From Sporopachydermia quercuum (Eukaryota): a DNA stretch of 20,000 nucleotides. Made by a program: the position numbers and the translations under genes. Location of the stretch: the NCBI GenBank assembly GCA_001599295.1, contig BCGN01000007.1:889288-909287 (forward strand), given 5' to 3'. Position 1 is the stretch's first letter, and each line of letters begins with the position of its first letter. Under the pieces are notes generated by a model. The model searched no databases and was not told where the DNA came from. It saw nothing but the letters and a program-made list of their open reading frames with translations. Of this stretch, positions 3,775-20,000 are shown in pieces.

Positions 3775-6700
3775 TTAATTCTTTCCTCCTCTACCACCAA
3801 TTCCTTTCTCTAATACTTCAATTGCTTCTTGAGAAACTTCTACAGCTGGAAACTTCAATTCTCCTTCTTGTAAAGGTTTATCCAAGAAGCCAATTGCTAT
3901 CAAATAGCTCAAATAAACACCCAGAGTTTTCTCATCAACTCCTCGGCCTTTGCTCAAGTCAACTCCTGTCCATTTCTCATCGGCCTTCAAACATTCTCGT
4001 GCATTAGAATCATCTAATTCTGGGGCTTTAGTGTTCTGGGGTAAATCGTCTAGTACAAAATGCAATAACGGATATAATGCGTTATCTTTAGCTTCCACCA
4101 TAACGTATTTCTCCAGGGCAATTCGCCACGGAATATAATCGGTAATCTCGGCATTATAGCCGTATTTGCTTAAAGAGCCGAAGAACTCATTGAATCTCTG
4201 TCTCGGGTGAGACGTCACGTGCACAACAGATAAATTGCTGTCTTTTACAACCGAAGGCGCATTGAACGCACTAGCAGTGACAATTCTTGCCACGTGATCA
4301 ACCGGGACCATATTAATACTATTATATATATCCGGAACCTTTCCTAATTGCACACAGCCTTTCATCATCCGGACAATATAATCATCAGTATTTGAATAAC
4401 CGTTATAACTATCACCAGTGACATAGCCGGGTCGAACAATAGAGCCTTTTAAGCCCCGTTTGCCGGCCTCACGGAGAATATGCTCGGCAGCCCATTTGGA
4501 CTGTCCGTAGCCGGTAGGAAGTCCCGATTTGGATTTGAGCAAATCGTCACTTTCGGGGATTCCAGGCTTACCCTGNGACACCAAAAGGTCGGAGTATTCA
4601 ATGAATTCATTGCTATCGACTGTCGAAGTAGTGGAAACAAAAGAATAGTATTTTGGCTTGCCAACCGCGCACAGGTCAATCAAGTTAACGGTTCCAATGA
4701 CATTGGGGCCCCGCAATCTACTGTACGGATAAATCCAATGGACCAAAGCTCCATTATGGATAATAATGTCGATTTGGTCGGCCAAATGGTTGAAATCGGC
4801 ATCGGAAAGCCCGAAATGCGGCTGTTCCAGATCTCCCACAAATGCAGTGATAGCATCGGCAAAACTGTCTTTCCAGCACCCGTAGCCGATGGAAGAGTTC
4901 TTAATTCTCTGGAATCCGCTTTCGGCGTCTTTCGCCCGAACATGGGCTACAATTCTTATTTGAGAACTATCTCCGCGGCTTAAAAGGTCTTTGAGGATAA
5001 AAGACCCAAGAAATCCGGTGGCCCCGGTCAGGAAGACTGTAATTGGGTCATTCACACTGAACGGAGCGTCACGTGAAGGATATTTCTCCTGTAACCGCGC
5101 GGAAATAAGCTTTTGGGCGTCGCCATAGTAATCGGGCACATTATTTCCACTATCGGTACTATCATCTCCGGACTCCTCAGACTTGGCAACCCCATCTCCG
5201 GAATTGTCCACTAAATCATCATCAGACACTTTTTCAACTTCTCTAGCAAACGCTTTGATTGTCGGGTACTTGAAAATAGTCCCCAAAGGTAAATCGATCG
5301 CCATTTTGTTCCGAAGCTCGAAAATCATTCGGGTAGCTAAAATACTGTGCCCTCCGAGGTCAAAGAAATTGTCTGCGGGTGAACCAATAACCGGACGAGT
5401 AGGCAGAATATCCAGCCACAAATCGCGGATTTTGGCTTCCATTTCACTGAATTCCGCTTCCGATTCGCTTTTCCGGGTCAATTTAGCCACTAGGGACAAC
5501 TGAACTGTATCCGGGAACGGCAACGCGGGCTTATCCACTTTTCCGTTCGGATTCAAAGGCATTTTCGTCAGCGGAACTATAACTGTCGGAATCGCATAGG
5601 AAGAAAGTCTCTTTTTAAGGAAATCCCGGATATCTTTGATCAGATTCTGATGCTTCACAAGTCCTTTAACTAACGGATCTGCAGGGGCGTCCGGGTCAGC
5701 AGTAGAAGGACCCGGGTCCTTCGGAACAATATAAGATATCAAAACTGGCTCTTCGTCCTTATCTCTGCGCACCAAAGTAACGTTTTCTCTAACCATTGGA
5801 TGCTGGCTCAAGTGAGTATCGATTTCCCCGAGCTCGATTCTGAAACCCCGGATTTTCACTTGATCGTCAGCCCGGCCACAACATTCAGTGTTCCCGTCCG
5901 GAAGATACCGACCCAAATCTCCAGTTCTATAAAGCCGATCCCGAATTCCAAACCAGTATTTTTTCCATGCTTCAACCGGAGTTTTGGTGATTGTCGGGTT
6001 GTTTCCCGCGGAATCATCCACGTCATCTTTCCATTCCGAATCCGCAGTATACCAATTATTCACGAACTTCTTCGCTGTAAGCTCGGGAAGCTTCAAATAG
6101 CCCTCGGCAAGGCCGCCCGCCCGCACGTAAATCTCCCCAACTTCCCCCACCGCGCAGGATTGACTGGTATCGTGCCGGTTCACAATAATTAACTGAACGT
6201 CTAACATTCCTTTTCCTGCAGGAATAATATCCTTCTGAGAGTCCAGGAAAGACGGATCAGCACTTCGGGGCGGAATCAGGAAATAGGAAACCGATCTCTG
6301 AGTTTCCGTAGTGCCGTACATGTTCACAATACTACAATTATTAGCTAATCCTTGTAATCGGACGCAGTCTCGCTTGGTGAGAATATCCCCCACGAAAAAA
6401 GCATGGTGGAGATGGGAAATCTTGTGCGAAGCTTGCGCCGAAAGCAGTTGTCCCATTGCCGGTGTCAAATGCGTAACGGTAGCTTTATGTTCATCCATCC
6501 ATTCGGCAAGTCTTCCGGGAGTTCCGATATCGTCACTGGTGGGCACCAATAGCTGTGCCCCGAGAAATAGCGGAGTGAAAATGTCCCNTTGAATAGGATC
6601 ATGGGCAATTCCGCTAAGCATTGTGAATCTATCCTCGCTCGAAAGGTTGAATTCTTGAGACATCCAAGGGAAATAATAGGTGAGGGAGAAATGTCGACCT

Positions 6701-8088
6701 TTAACGCCTTTCGGAATGCCCTCGGAGCCGGAAGTGAAGGATAAGGTAGGATTGGCGTCTGGGCCGACAATCACACCAGTAGGAGTTGATTTGCGCGAGT
6801 AAAAAGACTGTAAAGGGTTTTCCGTAGTTCCCGAACTAGAACCAAAACTGGTAATTGTGCCGTCGTCTGCTAATTCCAAGCCGTCAATTCGGGCCAAAAG
6901 TTCCAATTCCTTGGAAATGTACTCCTCGACTAAGCCATCGATTATTCCGGCTTTCTTAATCACTATTAAGGCCTTAGGACGTGCTACCGATAAATAAATA
7001 TTCTGTCGGGCCGGCGGATAAGCAGGATCAATAACCGAGAAAGTTGCCCCGGCTTTTAAAACTCCCATCACAGCTACCACCAAATCGACGCCTCTGTAAG
7101 CGTAAATCATAACCACATCACCGATTTTGATACCCTGGTTAATCAAATAATGAGCTACAACATTGCTGCTTTCGTCAATCTGTCGGTAGGTGAAAACACG
7201 GTCTTTACCGGCGGGAGAATCCGGAGCAGCTAAAAAGCTCCCGGTTTCAACCACACAGCATCTTTCCGGGTGTTTTGACGCATTCAATTGGAAAATATCC
7301 TGAATTGAACCACGATATTGATTCCAGTGCAAATCAGTGGTAGGATCAGGCAAAACTGAAGCTTGAGAAGGGGTAATCAACTGGATTTTACTGATTTCAA
7401 TACTGCTATCAATAGAGGCAATTCTCACGGCTCGGCATAATTGGTCGGCAAAAATATTGATTCTCTCCCTTTTGAATAACAGCGAATTATAGTATATTTT
7501 CAGCTGGTTTGTCGATTCGTTNAAATAAATCAATAAATCGCGAATAGAGCCCGTATACGATGATTTAAGATAACTACCAGAGCCGGTGCTGGAAGAGGAA
7601 TCATGTAAATCGTGTTGGAAGGAAACCCGGAAAATAACTGGAGATTCCGAGGTATTTTCCTTGTTTTGGATGAATTTGATCACTTCATGCAAAGGTTCAG
7701 CCTTTGCTGAATTATTGGTGAATTGATCGTCAATTAATGTCAATAAATGGCCAAAAGATGTCGCGCCATTGAGAGATAATCTTACAATGAAAGGTTTATC
7801 ATTTCCGTTATCGGTAGCAATGATGATATCTTCATCTCCGGTCAATCTGAAGATTAAAAGGGCTAAAGCCGATAAATAAATAGTGAACGGGTTTATATGA
7901 GATAAACCGGTGAATCGAGCTTGAGAGGCAATTTTGGTGCACCAGGAAGAATAATCAGCCGGTAAATCGTATTGGAGCGTTGATTCTACAGATTTGTTAT
8001 TGGTAGGCCTGTTAAAATCGTGGGGCAGCACGGACAACGTTGGAGATTTGAGAAATCTGGCCCAAAATTCGAGGTTTTCGTTGCTCAT
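3775..8088 (-). CDS. LYS2: L-2-aminoadipate reductase large subunit (NRPS-like adenylation-PCP-reductase)
   Basis: 1437-aa ORF. Adenylation motifs [55 protein letters not shown]; phosphopantetheine site FFDLGGHSI; reductase NAD-binding [10 protein letters not shown] and GYGQSKW. Confidence 0.98.
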
Positions 8089-8564: not shown

Positions 8565-8609
8565 GAATGCAGGTGAATGCAGGTGAATGCAGGTGAGTTC
8601 AGGTGAATG
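8565..8609. repeat. 10-bp tandem repeat (GAATGCAGGT, ~4.5 copies) in the LYS2 upstream region
   Basis: gaatgcaggt gaatgcaggt gaatgcaggt gagttcaggt gaatg read directly. Confidence 0.85.
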
Positions 8610-8615
8610 AGTCAG
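8607..8615 (-). promoter_or_regulatory. Gcn4/AP-1-type element upstream of LYS2
   Basis: ATGAGTCAG (TGASTCA core) ~520 bp upstream of the LYS2 ATG, with a second GAGTCA at 8615-8620 and TGACTAA at 8471-8477. LYS2 is an established Gcn4 target in yeasts. Confidence 0.6.
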
Positions 8616-9397
8616 AGTCAGAATGACAGAGAAGTAGGAAGATAATTTATTAATTAAGCAACTGGAGAAATTGGTCACTTATGGAGGATCGGGGTTAAAT
8701 TCGGGGCTGAATTCAGTGAAACTTCTTATGTAACGTAAAATTGTACTGGAAAAGGGGCATCCTGATACGCTTAGAATGCATAGAATTGCGTAGGTAGTAA
8801 TTGGAAAGAAAAAAAAGTAAATTACTTGCAACTATTGGATGCGTCAAAAATATAAAATCAATTTCAAACAAACATCCATATTAACAAAGTTAAATAGTGT
8901 TCTACCAATGCTTCTATTCATTTATTCCAAAGCTCAATAGGACTAATACTGAGAAATGTGCACAATTATGCATAGAATTTTAGCTTTTCTTTATTTCCCC
9001 ACCTTAACATTTAAAGTTTACGCATAATATTGCAGTCGTATGCGCAATCATTCAACTTTAATTACCATCTGCGCTTATTAAAAACATATTCTACGTTATC
9101 TTCAGTTTAAAAACTTCAATCTAATCATTATTCAGCCTCATAAAGACTCATCTTCATTCCTTATAAATTCCACTACTTCTTCTATCAGGAAATATCATTA
9201 AACTACTTCCTTTATCTTCATCTCAAATACCCAGTACAGTTCTGTAGCCTTNGAACTGTACCGATTCAGCTTGGAATTCCAATTATGAATCCTTTCGTGC
9301 ATAAGTGGTCAAATATTCAACTTATAACATAACACCTCTGGAGCAATAAAAAGGTATCACATCCATTGCCCCATTTCCTTATGATTACCATACCAAA

Positions 9398-10158
9398 CTA
9401 TTTATTCAATTCATTGAGGAAAACATCAGTGAAATGAGTCAATTGCTTGAAATTCTCTTGAAATCCATTGATTCCTCCATAATAAGGATCAAAAACAACT
9501 CTATCAATAGAACTATCTGTTCTGTATGCTCCAAGCAAATTAATGATTGCTTTACTATCTTTTGGCTGGATATGTCGTAATTCTTTCAAGTGTCCTCTAT
9601 CCTATAAACTCTCAGTCAGCATTTAGTTTTACCCTGAGCTTATGAATAGTAATAGTAATGATAATAGACAGACAGAAAGGTTTACTTACCATTGCAAATA
9701 TGTAATCGAATTTAGAGAAATCCCTTGATGCTATTTGTTGTGCATAATGATTTATCTTCACGCCATTATTCAGACATGTTTGAATAGATCTTCTGTCTGA
9801 TAGTTCTCCAATATGATATCCGTGTGTTCCGTAGGAATCAATAATATCAAATCGATCTTGCAGTCCTCTCTTTTCAACTTCATGTCTAAATATTGCCCTG
9901 AATTAACTTGTGAGTAATTTGATTGACTGATCATAACTATTTGTGCACACATTCTCCATAGTCGGTAGTGGAGTATAATCAATTGCTGGAGAAGCAACAA
10001 CAAATTAGCAAAGACTTACTCTGCCATTGGAGATCGGCAACTAGGAGAATAGCAGTTAGAATATGGAGAGTTTGAAATCACTCAATCAGTTGATACCAGA
10101 ACAAAGCATACATATTGCCTGTGCAGACGAATGCAACTGAGAGCTTCTCGTTGGTCAT
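9398..10158 (-). CDS. LTP1: Low-molecular-weight protein tyrosine phosphatase, 159 aa, 4 exons: 10158-10112, 10040-10020, 9897-9690, 9601-9398
   Basis: Splicing three GT..AG introns (10111-10041 GTATGC..TAG; 10019-9898 GTAAGT..CAG; 9689-9602 GTAAGT..TAG) gives a 480-nt stop-free CDS: MTNEKLSVAFVCTGNICRSPMAEAIFRHEVEKRGLQDRFDIIDSYGTHGYHIGELSDRRSIQTC...FDYIFAMD...DPYYGG...NFKQLTHF...ELNK*. It has the CX5RS P-loop and the DPYY acid loop and closely follows yeast Ltp1. Confidence 0.95.
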
Positions 10159-16045: not shown

Positions 16046-18825
16046 TTACGCATACCTCGAAACCATCGCCGTATAGCATGACTCGAGTTCAGTCTCAGAT
16101 CCAACGAACTTTTTGTTTTCACAGGCGTCACTATATGCGACCCGTATATTATCAGGCAAACCAGGCAAATCTTTTTTATTTCCATAATGCAGCTTAACTG
16201 ATGCATGCAATTTTGCGGAGGGTGGTAGTTCTCTTTTCGTTCCTAAAGAAAGGTCAAGCTTCTCGTTCAACTTAACGGCATAATTTTTTCTAACTCTGTT
16301 AGCAGAAAGATGGCAGTAGGAACGCTATTAATCGGTTTGATTACCATTATCATTATTATTGTCATTTTCACTTACTTTCCATCTGCTTTAATTCTTGATT
16401 GAACAGAAAATTCGTTCGTATATTGAGTTTCAAATGCTGACTCTTTTCTTCCCTGTCCTGAACGACGACCACTCCTCGTTTTCATTTTATTGTCCTTATT
16501 AATTTCACTAGATCTGAATAGCTGTTAGTAGGAATATCACAATGGGAATACCATTAATCAGTTTGATTACCATTATTATTACCATTATTATTACCATTAT
16601 TATTACCATTATTATTACCATTATTATTACCATTATTATTACCATTATTATTACCATTATTATTACCATTATTGTTGTCACATTTTCACTTACTTTCCAT
16701 TTACTTTAATTGTTGTTGGAACAGAACCTTCATTTCCATATTGAATCTCAAGTGATGGTAGTTCTATTTCCCTTCCTGAATGAGAACGAAGTTTCCTTTC
16801 CGACCCATTGTCATAAGTTTCACTGAACAACTGTTAGTAGGAATATAGCAGTAGGAATACTCAAAATCATCCTTATTATTATCATTATTATTATCATTAT
16901 TATTGTCATTGTTATTACTTACATTCCATTTACTGTAATTGTTGATGGAACAGAACCTTCATTTGTATATTGGATTTCAACTGATATATGCCATTTCGCA
17001 GATGCTGCTTTTGCAGATGCTACTTTTGCAGATGCTACTTTTGCAGATGCTACTTTTTCAGATGCTACTTTTGCAGATGCTACTTCTCTTCTTTCTTCTA
17101 AATGACGATCAAGCTTTGCTTTCAACTCATCATCATCAATTTCCCTAGATTTGAATAACTCTGTTAGTGGAAATATAGTAGTAGAAACACTATTGTCATT
17201 GTTACTTACTCTCCATCTACTTTAATTGTTGTTGGAACAAAACCTTCATTTCCATATTGAATCTCAAGTGATGGTAGTTCTATTTCGCTTCCTGAACGAA
17301 GTTTCCTTTCCGACCCATTGTCATACGTTTCACTGAATAACTGTTAGTAGGAATATCACAATGGGAATACTATTAATCGGTTTGATTACCATTATCATTA
17401 TTATTGTCATTTTCACTTACTTTCCATCTGCTTTAATTCTTGATTGAACAGAAAATTCGTTCGTATATTGAGTTTCAAATGCTGACTCTTTTCTTCCCTG
17501 TCCTGAACGACGACCACTCCTCGTTTTCATTTTATTGTCCTTATTAATTTCACTAGATCTGAATAGCTGTTAGTAGGAATATCACAATGGGAATACCATT
17601 AATCAGTTTGATTACCATTATTATTACCGTTGCTATTATCACTATTGTTGTCATATTTTCACTTACTTTCCATCTATTTTAATTGTTGATGGAACAAAAC
17701 CTTTAAAAAAAAATAGATATCCCTCGATAATCCGCCAATAGAAAGAAACGTCCAGTTGGTTAAGAATATCAGCGTTGGTTGCTACATCTATTGTAGAAGT
17801 GTTTGGCCAATTTTCTATTGGATCCTTAAATAATAATCTTTTCGACGTTCTGGCATCTCCCTCAACCTGGCACAACTCATTAATTATCCAGCTCAATGGT
17901 ATATCTGATAACAGCAAATTTCGTTTACCATTTTTATAAACAGGAAATGAGCTACCACCAATATCAGCATGACATCCGACAAACCAAGCTTCAACGAGAT
18001 CCGACTTCTGTGTTGTAGAACCTTCCTTTTTTGGAGTAAAAGGGGTTAAGCTGAAGCAAGTTCTTTGCTCGTGTATACTAATAGCATGTCTTATATATTC
18101 AACGTTGTCACCATTAGTGTAAGGAAAAGCTTTATCTAGAAGCACCCCTACTGAACCAACAGTATCAAATAGACCCATGAAGAATATCTTTGTACAAGGA
18201 TACGAAAACATCTCTTGGAACTAGAAAGGGGGACGTGTTAATAATATGCTATAAAACAGTGTAATAATTATCCCTATCAAAAACATACAGCTTCCTGTTT
18301 GGTACTTACTCCATTGATAGTGTCTTTATCTCCTTGTTGGTGTTTCGATGATGCATACAAATTCCATGCCGTAGCAATCAATTCAGTTAATCCATTACGT
18401 AGAATCCCACACGCTTCAATAAGACCAGCTAGCACTCTAGCTGTATATGATCCTCTACTAAATCCAAACATATATATTCTATCACCAGGGTTATANTTTG
18501 ATACCAAATAACTATAAGCTTTTAATACGTGAACCATTAAGGAAGTAGCAAATGCTTTATCTGTTAACGATTTCAACCAGCCCTTAGCATCTTCAAAATT
18601 CAAGGTATTGCCGATTCCTGGTTGGTAGTAGCAAATTTGTTGGTCAGCATTTTCTTTAAAAAGTTGTTCAAATATGATGAGAATATTTGTTGGTTGGATG
18701 GTATCAAAGTTGTTTGATGTACCATCCAGACAGAGAACAATTGATTTCCCAGGGTACCTGTCAGCAGTTGGTGTTCCAGAAGTAGGATCAGCAGAACCCT
18801 CTGGTTCAGTAGTTGCATTCCTCAT
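16046..18825 (-). CDS. DUF2235 / Tle1-like alpha/beta-hydrolase (YEL023C-like), 8 predicted exons: 18825-18289, 18220-17667, 17558-17421, 17332-17210, 17144-16923, 16822-16694, 16513-16376, 16289-16046 (694 aa with all exons, 444 aa without the five cassettes)
   Basis: Motifs IVLCLDGT, TNI, CYYQPGIG, IYMFGFSRGSYTARVLAG (nucleophile Ser), GLFDTVGSVG (Asp), RHAISIHEQR, EAWFVGCHADIGG (His), PLSWII, and the C-terminal LGTKRELP..AKLHASVK. Intron 1 (18288-18221, GTATGT..TATTAAC..TAG) joins the two large ORFs in phase 0. Six more GTAAGT..CTAAC..YAG introns, all phase 2, give a continuous 2085-nt frame. Confidence 0.88.
16566..16673. repeat. 12-bp minisatellite (ATTACCATTATT) x9 inside an intron
   Basis: Nine perfect copies read directly, inside intron 16693-16514. 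Confidence 0.95.
16994..17083 (-). repeat. 15-bp coding minisatellite, (VASAK) x6, in cassette exon C
   Basis: TTTTGCAGATGCTAC-like units x6 encoding VASAK VASEK VASAK VASAK VASAK AASAK. Confidence 0.93.
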
Positions 18826-19798: not shown

Positions 19799-20000
19799 TC
19801 AATTGCTTGATCCCTCCCATCTCTTATACCTCGAAACCATCACCTCATAGCATGACTCAATTTCTCTCTTAGATCCAATGAAATTTTCCTCTTTATAGGC
19901 ATTCGATATATTATCAGGAGCCAAATCTTTATTTGCATATCGCAGTTTCACTGATGTATGCAATTTTGCAAATGACGGAAGTTGTCTTTTCCTTCCTAAA
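19799..20000 (-). CDS. 3' end of a second, tandem DUF2235 paralog (continues beyond the window)
   Basis: Translates LGRKRQLPSFAKLHTSVKLRYANKDLAPDNISNAYKEENFIGSKREIESCYEVMVSRYKRWEGSSN*, clearly homologous to the last exon at 16046-16289 (LGTKRELPPSAKLHASVKLHYGNKK..PDNIRVAY..FVGSETELESCYTAMVSRY). Confidence 0.85.
   Translation of the reverse strand, partial: LGRKRQLPSFAKLHTSVKLRYANKDLAPDNISNAYKEENFIGSKREIESCYEVMVSRYKRWEGSSN

Follow-up and report, generated by a model that had tools for sequence, protein, structure and literature searches.

Copying a gene segment together with its splice signals is a recognised route to intron gain, described as tandem genomic duplication, for example in the potato RdRp gene (passages in PMC4974935; also PMC3443670). 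In internal exon-intron duplications of this type the segment is duplicated in tandem inside the gene, introns rise in number with exons, and the reading frame is kept. A survey of internal gene duplications was reportedly made by Gao and Lynch in 2009. Here we describe a likeness to this type in Sporopachydermia quercuum: a DUF2235 hydrolase gene on the minus strand of contig BCGN01000007.1, at positions 16046 to 18825 of the stretch of 20,000 nucleotides (nt) that we analysed (the window, to which all positions refer), with an array of five cassette exons between its exon 2 and its last exon. It differs from the potato type in having five extra units instead of one, in belonging to an intron-scarce budding yeast, and in that the copied unit is part of a conserved appendage of the catalytic domain. 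We see about an even chance that this is an internal tandem exon-intron duplication in a functional fungal DUF2235 gene, with constitutively spliced exons that add a repeat linker of ~250 amino acids (aa).

Budding yeasts have few introns, and the usual account of them is one of intron loss. Judging from the sequence, five introns appear to have been gained here at once by the copying of an exon-intron unit, and the array may still be undergoing reshuffling. For budding yeasts, the locus would be a clean case in nature of introns gained through segmental duplication, and its near-identical splice sites, standing in a row, would give a natural competition substrate for a spliceosome working by intron definition. 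A ladder of isoforms among its transcripts would make it a rare example of multi-exon skipping in yeast; a single product, which is what we expect, would make it a repeat expansion of an ordinary if instructive kind in an enzyme. Excerpts from the literature on yeast DUF2235 proteins, YEL023C and yeast tandem exon duplication contained no description of such an array in yeast.

Two further systems invite comparison. In Dscam and Mhc, clusters of tandemly duplicated exons undergo mutually exclusive splicing (passages in PMC1397879 and PMC6071210). The variants in such clusters are equivalent in length and in structural core; one and only one of them is used, a choice imposed by RNA pairings that compete with each other. 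The present array is like them in layout only, having homologous exons, homologous introns between them and one shared phase. Its cassettes measure 123-222 nt and most have lost the core residues, so that structural equivalence is absent, and the "true" copy stands in the last exon, which no isoform can omit; as read by eye from the peptides, the invariant R and H.S occur only there and partly in cassette C. No significant docking or selector RNA pairing was found in the array, where the best inverted repeats are 12-27 nt at 70-92% and the hairpin enclosing the branch site and acceptor of cassette B folds like shuffled sequence (z -0.06; 86 of 200 shuffles as good). Budding yeasts are not known to possess regulators of the kind needed for mutually exclusive splicing. 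An earlier note on this DNA had proposed a Dscam-like specificity module, a comparison against which the unequal lengths, the loss of invariants from most modules and the absence of significant RNA pairing speak.

Intragenic tandem repeats in yeast genes are the other system, and Verstrepen et al. are said to have found in 2005 that these vary by recombination. Shared with them are repeat units in a coding region with signs of recent recombination, here an exact block of 259 bp. Repeats of that type lie within one exon and mostly in cell-wall proteins, whereas each unit here carries its own intron; no N-terminal signal peptide is obvious by eye in the hydrolase translation, on which no predictor was run.

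The hydrolase gene and its exon array

The gene comprises the following parts; the exact repeat and the upstream paralog stand at the end of the list.

18310-18825, minus strand: exon 1, 516 nt, with the ATG at 18825 and the nucleophile motif GFSRG at residue 121; PF09994 at 6.2e-47
18221-18309, minus strand: intron 1, 89 nt, unrelated to the array; GTAAGT, a branch-like site TATTAAC and an AG ~17 nt downstream
17667-18220, minus strand: exon 2, 554 nt, ending in phase 2; FDTV, GCHADIGG and the helix motif WRIIE; PF09994 at 2.2e-25
17667-17703, minus strand: module-derived tail of exon 2, its last 37 nt, GFVPSTIKIDGK; repeat family D1, 87%
17559-17666, minus strand: array intron between exon 2 and A, 108 nt; GTAAGT, TACTAAC, acceptor TTCAG at +11, alternative TAG 6 nt further
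17421-17558, minus strand: cassette A, 138 nt
17333-17420, minus strand: array intron between A and B, 88 nt
17210-17332, minus strand: cassette B, 123 nt, homologous to the last exon (p 0.0015 for protein, 0.001 for DNA)
17145-17209, minus strand: array intron between B and C, 65 nt; CACTAAC, acceptor TCTAG at +19
16923-17144, minus strand: cassette C, 222 nt, the most complete copy of the 5' part of the last exon
16823-16922, minus strand: array intron between C and B', 100 nt
16694-16822, minus strand: cassette B', 129 nt, differing from B by 5 mismatches and one in-frame 6-nt indel
16514-16693, minus strand: array intron between B' and A', 180 nt, with a perfect 12-nt x 9 microsatellite at 16566-16673
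16376-16513, minus strand: cassette A', 138 nt, identical to A at 138 of 138 nt
16296-16375, minus strand: array intron between A' and the last exon, 80 nt; TGCTAAC, acceptor CAG at +3 or TTAG at +9, both in frame
16046-16295, minus strand: last exon, with the canonical C-terminal segment (LSLGTKRELPPSAKLHASV...) and the stop TAA at 16048-16046
17370-17628: exact 259-bp repeat, equal to 16325-16583, spanning cassette A/A' and parts of both flanking introns; the copies lie 1045 bp apart
19826-19999, minus strand: the final 58 codons of a tandem paralog located upstream, truncated at the edge of the window

Exon 2 measures 554 nt, which puts all six array introns in phase 2, and all five cassettes are multiples of 3 and stop-free. 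Much of what the earlier note had read from the letters holds here: its five exons of 138, 123, 222, 129 and 138 nt between phase-2 introns, the GTAAGT donors (6 of 6) and near-perfect branch points (TACTAAC four times, CACTAAC and TGCTAAC), and the module peptides as it wrote them; its gene model and Tle1-like DUF2235 assignment agree with the PF09994 matches (6e-47 in exon 1, 2e-25 in exon 2). The size range that it gave for the product, 444-694 aa, needed correction: the predicted protein has 689 aa with all cassettes and 439 aa if every one is skipped. For the last exon, the start may be 16295 or, by homology with module C, 16289, either of them being in frame. Within cassette C, a 15-nt repeat present 6.1 times (16994-17085) encodes (VASAK)6. 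No known RNA family was found at E <= 1 between 15500 and 20000.

PF09994, the catalytic domain of type VI secretion system (T6SS) Tle1-like proteins, formerly called DUF2235, scores 160.7 bits in exon 1 and 90 bits in exon 2 (gathering cut-off 27), and the two matches cover profile positions 1-147 and 166-287 of 287. Tle1 enzymes use a GxSxG nucleophile with a conserved Asp and His as their catalytic triad. The corresponding motifs here are GFSRG in exon 1 and, in exon 2, FDTV and GCHADIGG, which align to D199 and H314 of the family alignment. The domain is shared, along with the serine of GxSxG and the D and H motifs, by fungal DUF2235 proteins of the type of Saccharomyces cerevisiae YEL023C and by bacterial T6SS Tle1 (PDB 4O5P, 6SJL, 9J3F). 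Unlike the latter, this is a eukaryotic gene without a secretion-system context: the linkage to VgrG or a T6SS and the cognate immunity gene that characterise T6SS effectors are absent, and its neighbours are LYS2, an SNF2/RING helicase and an LTP1-like phosphatase.

An alignment of 30 family sequences has 15 invariant columns, and every one is matched here, 12 by exon 2 and three (R, H and S) by the last exon; the catalytic serine of GFSRG is present in exon 1. Because the 15 invariants survive in exon 2 and the last exon, the gene looks functional. Their division between these two exons also means that the last exon must be read in frame with exon 2. The ratio of non-synonymous to synonymous substitution rates (dN/dS) between the last exon and the upstream paralog is 0.53.

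The canonical C-terminal segment of the family consists of a WW.LE.LP helix and a hairpin, followed by LG..R.[IL]P and [LIV]H.SV; the motifs present here are WRIIE in exon 2 and LGTKRELP and LHASV in the last exon. Among 31 canonical segments drawn from the 150 best homologs, WW.LE and LH.SV are separated by 34-46 residues, mostly 39-40. Compared with these, the present gene has an insert of ~250 aa, and the fixed spacing of the YEL023C-type C-terminal subdomain is not kept: the distance is 53 without cassettes (51 if the last exon starts at 16289) and 303 with all of them. The last exon nonetheless matches the profile of the canonical segment (hhalign probability 91.5%, E 8.7e-7) and the homolog P0046 (E 1.6e-5). 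The AlphaFold model of P0046, which is ~40% identical, has a mean predicted local distance difference test (pLDDT) score of 79.8 and a predicted template modelling score of 0.83, and shows the C-terminal segment as helix, beta-hairpin, loop and helix. By sequence, the homolog profile matches Pseudomonas aeruginosa Tle1 (4O5P) at 1.4e-19; the structural match of the P0046 model to 4O5P, a comparison of the homolog and not of the present gene product, has a Foldseek value of 1.9e-8 and a template modelling score of only 0.30. Another homolog, P0083, has ~60 extra low-complexity residues between G..R..P and VH.SV, which suggests that insertions are tolerated in that part of the family. The (VASAK)6 stretch of cassette C falls in the same part of the fold as this insert.

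An exhaustive HMMER search with exon 2 gave 1782 matches at E <= 1e-3, 125 at E <= 1e-10 and 0 at E <= 1e-30, the best with 44% identity, and a comparison of exon 2 with 424 longer candidate proteins gave none at E <= 1e-3. The best HMMER matches (P0001, P0002 and P0003; 837-2756 aa) align with exon 2 in 4-11 separate stretches, and P0001 and P0002 each contain two or more sets of the family motifs. They look like fused gene models of tandem paralogs, and tandem clustering may be common in the DUF2235 family. A metagenome scan with exon 1 returned 26 loci (best identity 45%), and no array was seen. Two of the loci, L001 and L002, hold an intronless 682-aa DUF2235 homolog beside a Rieske protein gene (in L001, 5959-8007 for the homolog and 8604-9251 for the Rieske iron-sulfur protein gene, in DNA of 36% GC), whereas the present gene has seven introns. 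We take the pairing in L001 to be the YEL023C-RIP1 arrangement of Saccharomyces. Only screens were found in the excerpts of the literature on YEL023C.

Origin and recombination of the modules

The entire 1.4 kb array is built from one exon-plus-intron unit, as seen from repeat families D1-D6 and the six-way intron alignment: the units are homologous to one another and to the parental last exon, introns included. Module C aligns with the last exon from its first bases, with a DNA score reached by 0 of 1000 shuffles and a protein p of 0.0005, and pairwise shuffle tests of modules B and B' against the last exon give p 0.001-0.0025. By these tests, the opening ~135 nt of the last exon recur in degenerate form as modules B, B' and C. 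Module A is not significantly similar to the last exon in shuffle tests (p 0.52 for protein, 0.34 for DNA) and is tied to B and C through its C-part only, at 71-76% DNA identity. Taken together, the five cassettes are additional copies, in degenerate form, of part of the C-terminal subdomain of the enzyme itself.

The homology between modules and last exon rests on the pairwise shuffle tests because the profile-profile comparisons are not significant: with hhalign, the modules reach a probability of 1.1% against the canonical segment and 3.3% against the last exon (E 0.013). In BLASTP, modules A, B, B' and C found nothing better than E 0.1 among the 150 best homologs. When modules A and C were placed as fragments on the family alignment with MAFFT, the outcome conflicted with the DNA homology and was disregarded. 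By eye, module C retains SAK-WHISV along with the expanded (VASAK)6, ELPS is left in B and B', and little remains in A. Among the module C-parts, the ratio of the proportions of non-synonymous and synonymous differences (pN/pS) is 0.63-0.95, which is near neutral, neither conserved nor diversifying, and lends no support to the combinatorial splicing proposed in the earlier note.

The array has recombined recently. Besides the identity of A and A' over the 259-bp block, B and B' are 96% identical in their exons and 84% in their upstream introns, and the cassettes follow one another in the order A-B-C-B'-A', which a single tandem duplication cannot produce. The flanks of the A and A' copies are distinct and diverge gradually, with 87% identity and then unrelated sequence upstream, and 89% downstream. 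The exact repeat and the cassette order point to unequal recombination or gene conversion, and shuffling at the DNA level is supported indirectly by the 259-bp block, the intermediate age of B and B', the order and the 12-nt x 9 microsatellite. The earlier suggestion of recombination at this level thus gains support from the exact repeat, the exon-intron difference between B and B' and the non-tandem order. Because of these signs of recent exchange, the copy number of the array is likely to vary between strains.

A T9 homopolymer (17705-17713) stands exactly where exon 2 turns from likeness to canonical homologs to the B-type module tail. The founding rearrangement may have had its breakpoint here, or the run may be a site prone to sequencing error.

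Splicing of the array

A motif scan of the minus strand places GTAAGT at all six array donors (17666, 17420, 17209, 16922, 16693 and 16375). Branch sites read TACTAAC at 17575, 17349, 16839 and 16530, CACTAAC at 17169 and (T)GCTAAC at 16303. When the six are aligned, the donor GTAAGT, CTAACAG and much of the exon tail are among the invariant columns, and the intron middles vary by indels. These donors and branch sites are at or near consensus and stronger than those of four introns elsewhere in the window that are unrelated to the array (intron 1 and three from the LTP1-like gene), which likewise use GTAAGT. The acceptors are not unique: CTAACAG occurs in every array intron and offers an AG 3 nt after the branch A, use of which would lengthen A, B, B' and A' by 8 nt and put them out of frame, and A and A' have a further in-frame TAG acceptor 6 nt downstream. 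At one acceptor of the LTP1-like gene (exon start 9601), AGs at +5 and +7 after the branch site GCTGAC are bypassed and the AG at +14 is used, which fits the in-frame cassette acceptors at +11 and +19.

The frame used contains no stop in any of the five cassettes and is the sole open one of six in each, the others having 1-8 stops in the two remaining sense frames and 1-3 in the three antisense frames. Under mononucleotide shuffling, the chance of an open frame is 0.016, 0.031, 0.002, 0.025 and 0.020 for the individual cassettes, and the modules differ in length by 15, 99 and 6 nt, all multiples of 3. If the modules were under no constraint, at 0.10-0.25 substitutions per site, each would have stayed stop-free with a probability of 0.07-0.49. 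Because three independent module types remain open, these figures suggest selection on the cassette frame, which would be expected only if the cassettes are translated. Retention of an array intron brings a TAA directly after the split codon in 6 of 6 cases, and a reading of the array introns as coding sequence was rejected, since they hold 1-31 stops each in the retention frame. In Yarrowia lipolytica, phase-2 GTAAGT introns always give a premature stop on retention (passages in PMC2911113).

We infer that the cassettes are spliced in, and constitutively. In this model, a unit comprising ~135 nt from the 5' end of the last exon and a short intron would have been copied repeatedly, and the copies reshuffled by unequal crossing-over or gene conversion until the gene held five extra exons and five extra introns. 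Intron definition is the most likely mode of splicing because the introns are short and their signals uniform and consensus; each array intron (65-180 nt) would then be recognised and removed singly, which implies constitutive inclusion of all five exons. The product of 689 aa would carry a charged, degenerate repeat linker of ~250 aa between the catalytic domain and the canonical C-terminal segment. The sequence of such a linker could drift almost neutrally as long as its frame is held, and the pN/pS of the modules is as expected of a spacer. Failure to remove an array intron would lead to the immediate TAA and probably expose the transcript to nonsense-mediated decay. In hemiascomycetous yeasts, alternative splicing is rare and consists mostly of intron retention (passages in PMC2911113, PMC7491326 and PMC3925392), and exon skipping affects 4 of 88 Y. 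lipolytica genes with splice variants (passages in PMC2911113).

Several observations weigh against constitutive inclusion. The spacing with all cassettes, 303 as against mostly 39-40 in canonical segments, makes the protein a structural outlier (with none included it is 53), and in the P0046 model the insertion point is a tight helix-to-hairpin junction within a part whose fold is predicted confidently, with pLDDT 82-96 over residues 431-533. The near-neutral pN/pS and the loss of invariants from the modules also fit decaying or dispensable sequence, and the changes between B and B' are 4 non-synonymous to 1 synonymous. The statistics on frame retention are modest: the copying that gave A/A' and B/B' is recent, and gain or loss of (VASAK)n units necessarily keeps the frame. 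Finally, exact repeats of 259 bp leave room for mis-assembly of copy number or order.

The last of these points could be taken further, to a partly artefactual assembly in which the unit is real and its number or order wrong, especially at the identical A/A' block and the perfect microsatellite. The 259-bp repeat, 1045 bp from its copy, the perfect 108-bp microsatellite and the 15 single Ns in the window, perhaps from a draft-quality consensus, would fit such an error. We nevertheless consider it very unlikely, given that the flanks of the copies are distinct and diverge gradually (87% and then unrelated upstream, 89% downstream), that B/B' and C are clearly different sequences, and that the frame is consistent through the whole array. 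A somewhat more serious contender, though still an unlikely one, is a decaying or silent paralog, in which constraint was relaxed after tandem gene duplication, the repeat expansion is part of the degeneration, and no working enzyme is expressed. A tandem paralog does lie directly upstream, the dN/dS of 0.53 indicates weak constraint, the stop comes ~10 codons before that of the paralog, the near-invariant P421 is lost and R233 is Q, and no database protein exceeds 44% identity in the HMMER search with exon 2; set against this are the retention of 15 of 15 invariant residues and the catalytic serine, the open state of eight of eight exons and the intact signals of seven of seven introns. The cassettes might instead be tolerated passengers, removed by joining exon 2 to the last exon (donor 17666 to acceptor 16296/16290, or by skipping all five) to give a near-canonical enzyme of 439 aa. 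The resulting spacing of 53 (51 with the start at 16289) is far closer to 39-40 than 303 is, and the modules lack conserved residues and drift near-neutrally. The spliceosome would, however, have to ignore five internal sets of consensus donor, branch and acceptor sites, passengers would have no reason to keep open frames and indels in threes, and the required intron of 1371 nt far exceeds the others seen in the window (65-180 nt in the array, 89 nt for intron 1). We regard removal of the array as quite improbable.

The earlier note had proposed combinatorial skipping, in which subsets of the five frame-symmetric exons are included to yield up to 32 in-frame isoforms (439-689 aa with the corrected sizes) with a varied linker. 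Its observation on frame stands: with 5 of 5 cassettes in phase 2-2 and stop-free, any subset is in frame. As an argument for skipping it does not discriminate, because constitutive inclusion must equally keep the last exon in frame. The donors and acceptors are near interchangeable, making the pairing of non-adjacent sites chemically possible, and shorter isoforms would come nearer to the canonical spacing of 39-40 residues. A 12-nt complementarity (11/12) between the pre-branch segment of three introns and the 5' end of B and B' also counts in favour of skipping; by our estimate, ~5 complementary 12-mers of this kind are expected in the region by chance, and the hairpin around the acceptor of B does not stand out from shuffles. 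Uniformly strong signals are not what skipped exons would be expected to show, and together with short introns they favour intron definition; the modules are degenerate and not equivalent variants (pN/pS <= 1), and exon skipping is rare in budding yeasts (passages in PMC2911113). We therefore think skipping improbable. It also seems doubtful, and decidedly so, that diversification operates at both DNA and RNA level, with up to 32 in-frame isoforms from an array reshuffled between strains by unequal recombination; if true, this would be diversification of that sort in a lineage thought to lack regulated exon skipping.

Neighbouring genes and minor observations

Three other genes were read in the window.

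3-2414: SNF2/RING helicase
3775-8088: LYS2
9398-10060, minus strand: LTP1-like low-molecular-weight phosphotyrosine phosphatase with at least three introns, GTAAGT donors

The best 120 LYS2 relatives listed are 55-59% identical, and all named ones are from budding yeasts (Nadsonia, Dipodascopsis, Wickerhamomyces, Lipomyces and others), a pattern that suggests an isolated lineage of Saccharomycotina. The earlier note had suggested a comparison with the adjacent paralog; the paralog is indeed present upstream, and the comparison was limited to its last 58 codons (19826-19999), those inside the window. The sequence after the stop of the hydrolase gene, which comes ~10 codons before that of the paralog, still resembles the paralog's tail.

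Between 10600 and 15600, ~5 kb hold only short, overlapping open reading frames in all frames and no readable gene model; intron-rich or frameshifted genes may lie there. The single Ns are scattered (for example at 18496, 19027 and 19052), one of them inside exon 1, and suggest a draft or masked consensus. The LTP1-like gene contains a micro-exon of 21 nt at 10020-10040, which encodes ..CRSPMAE.

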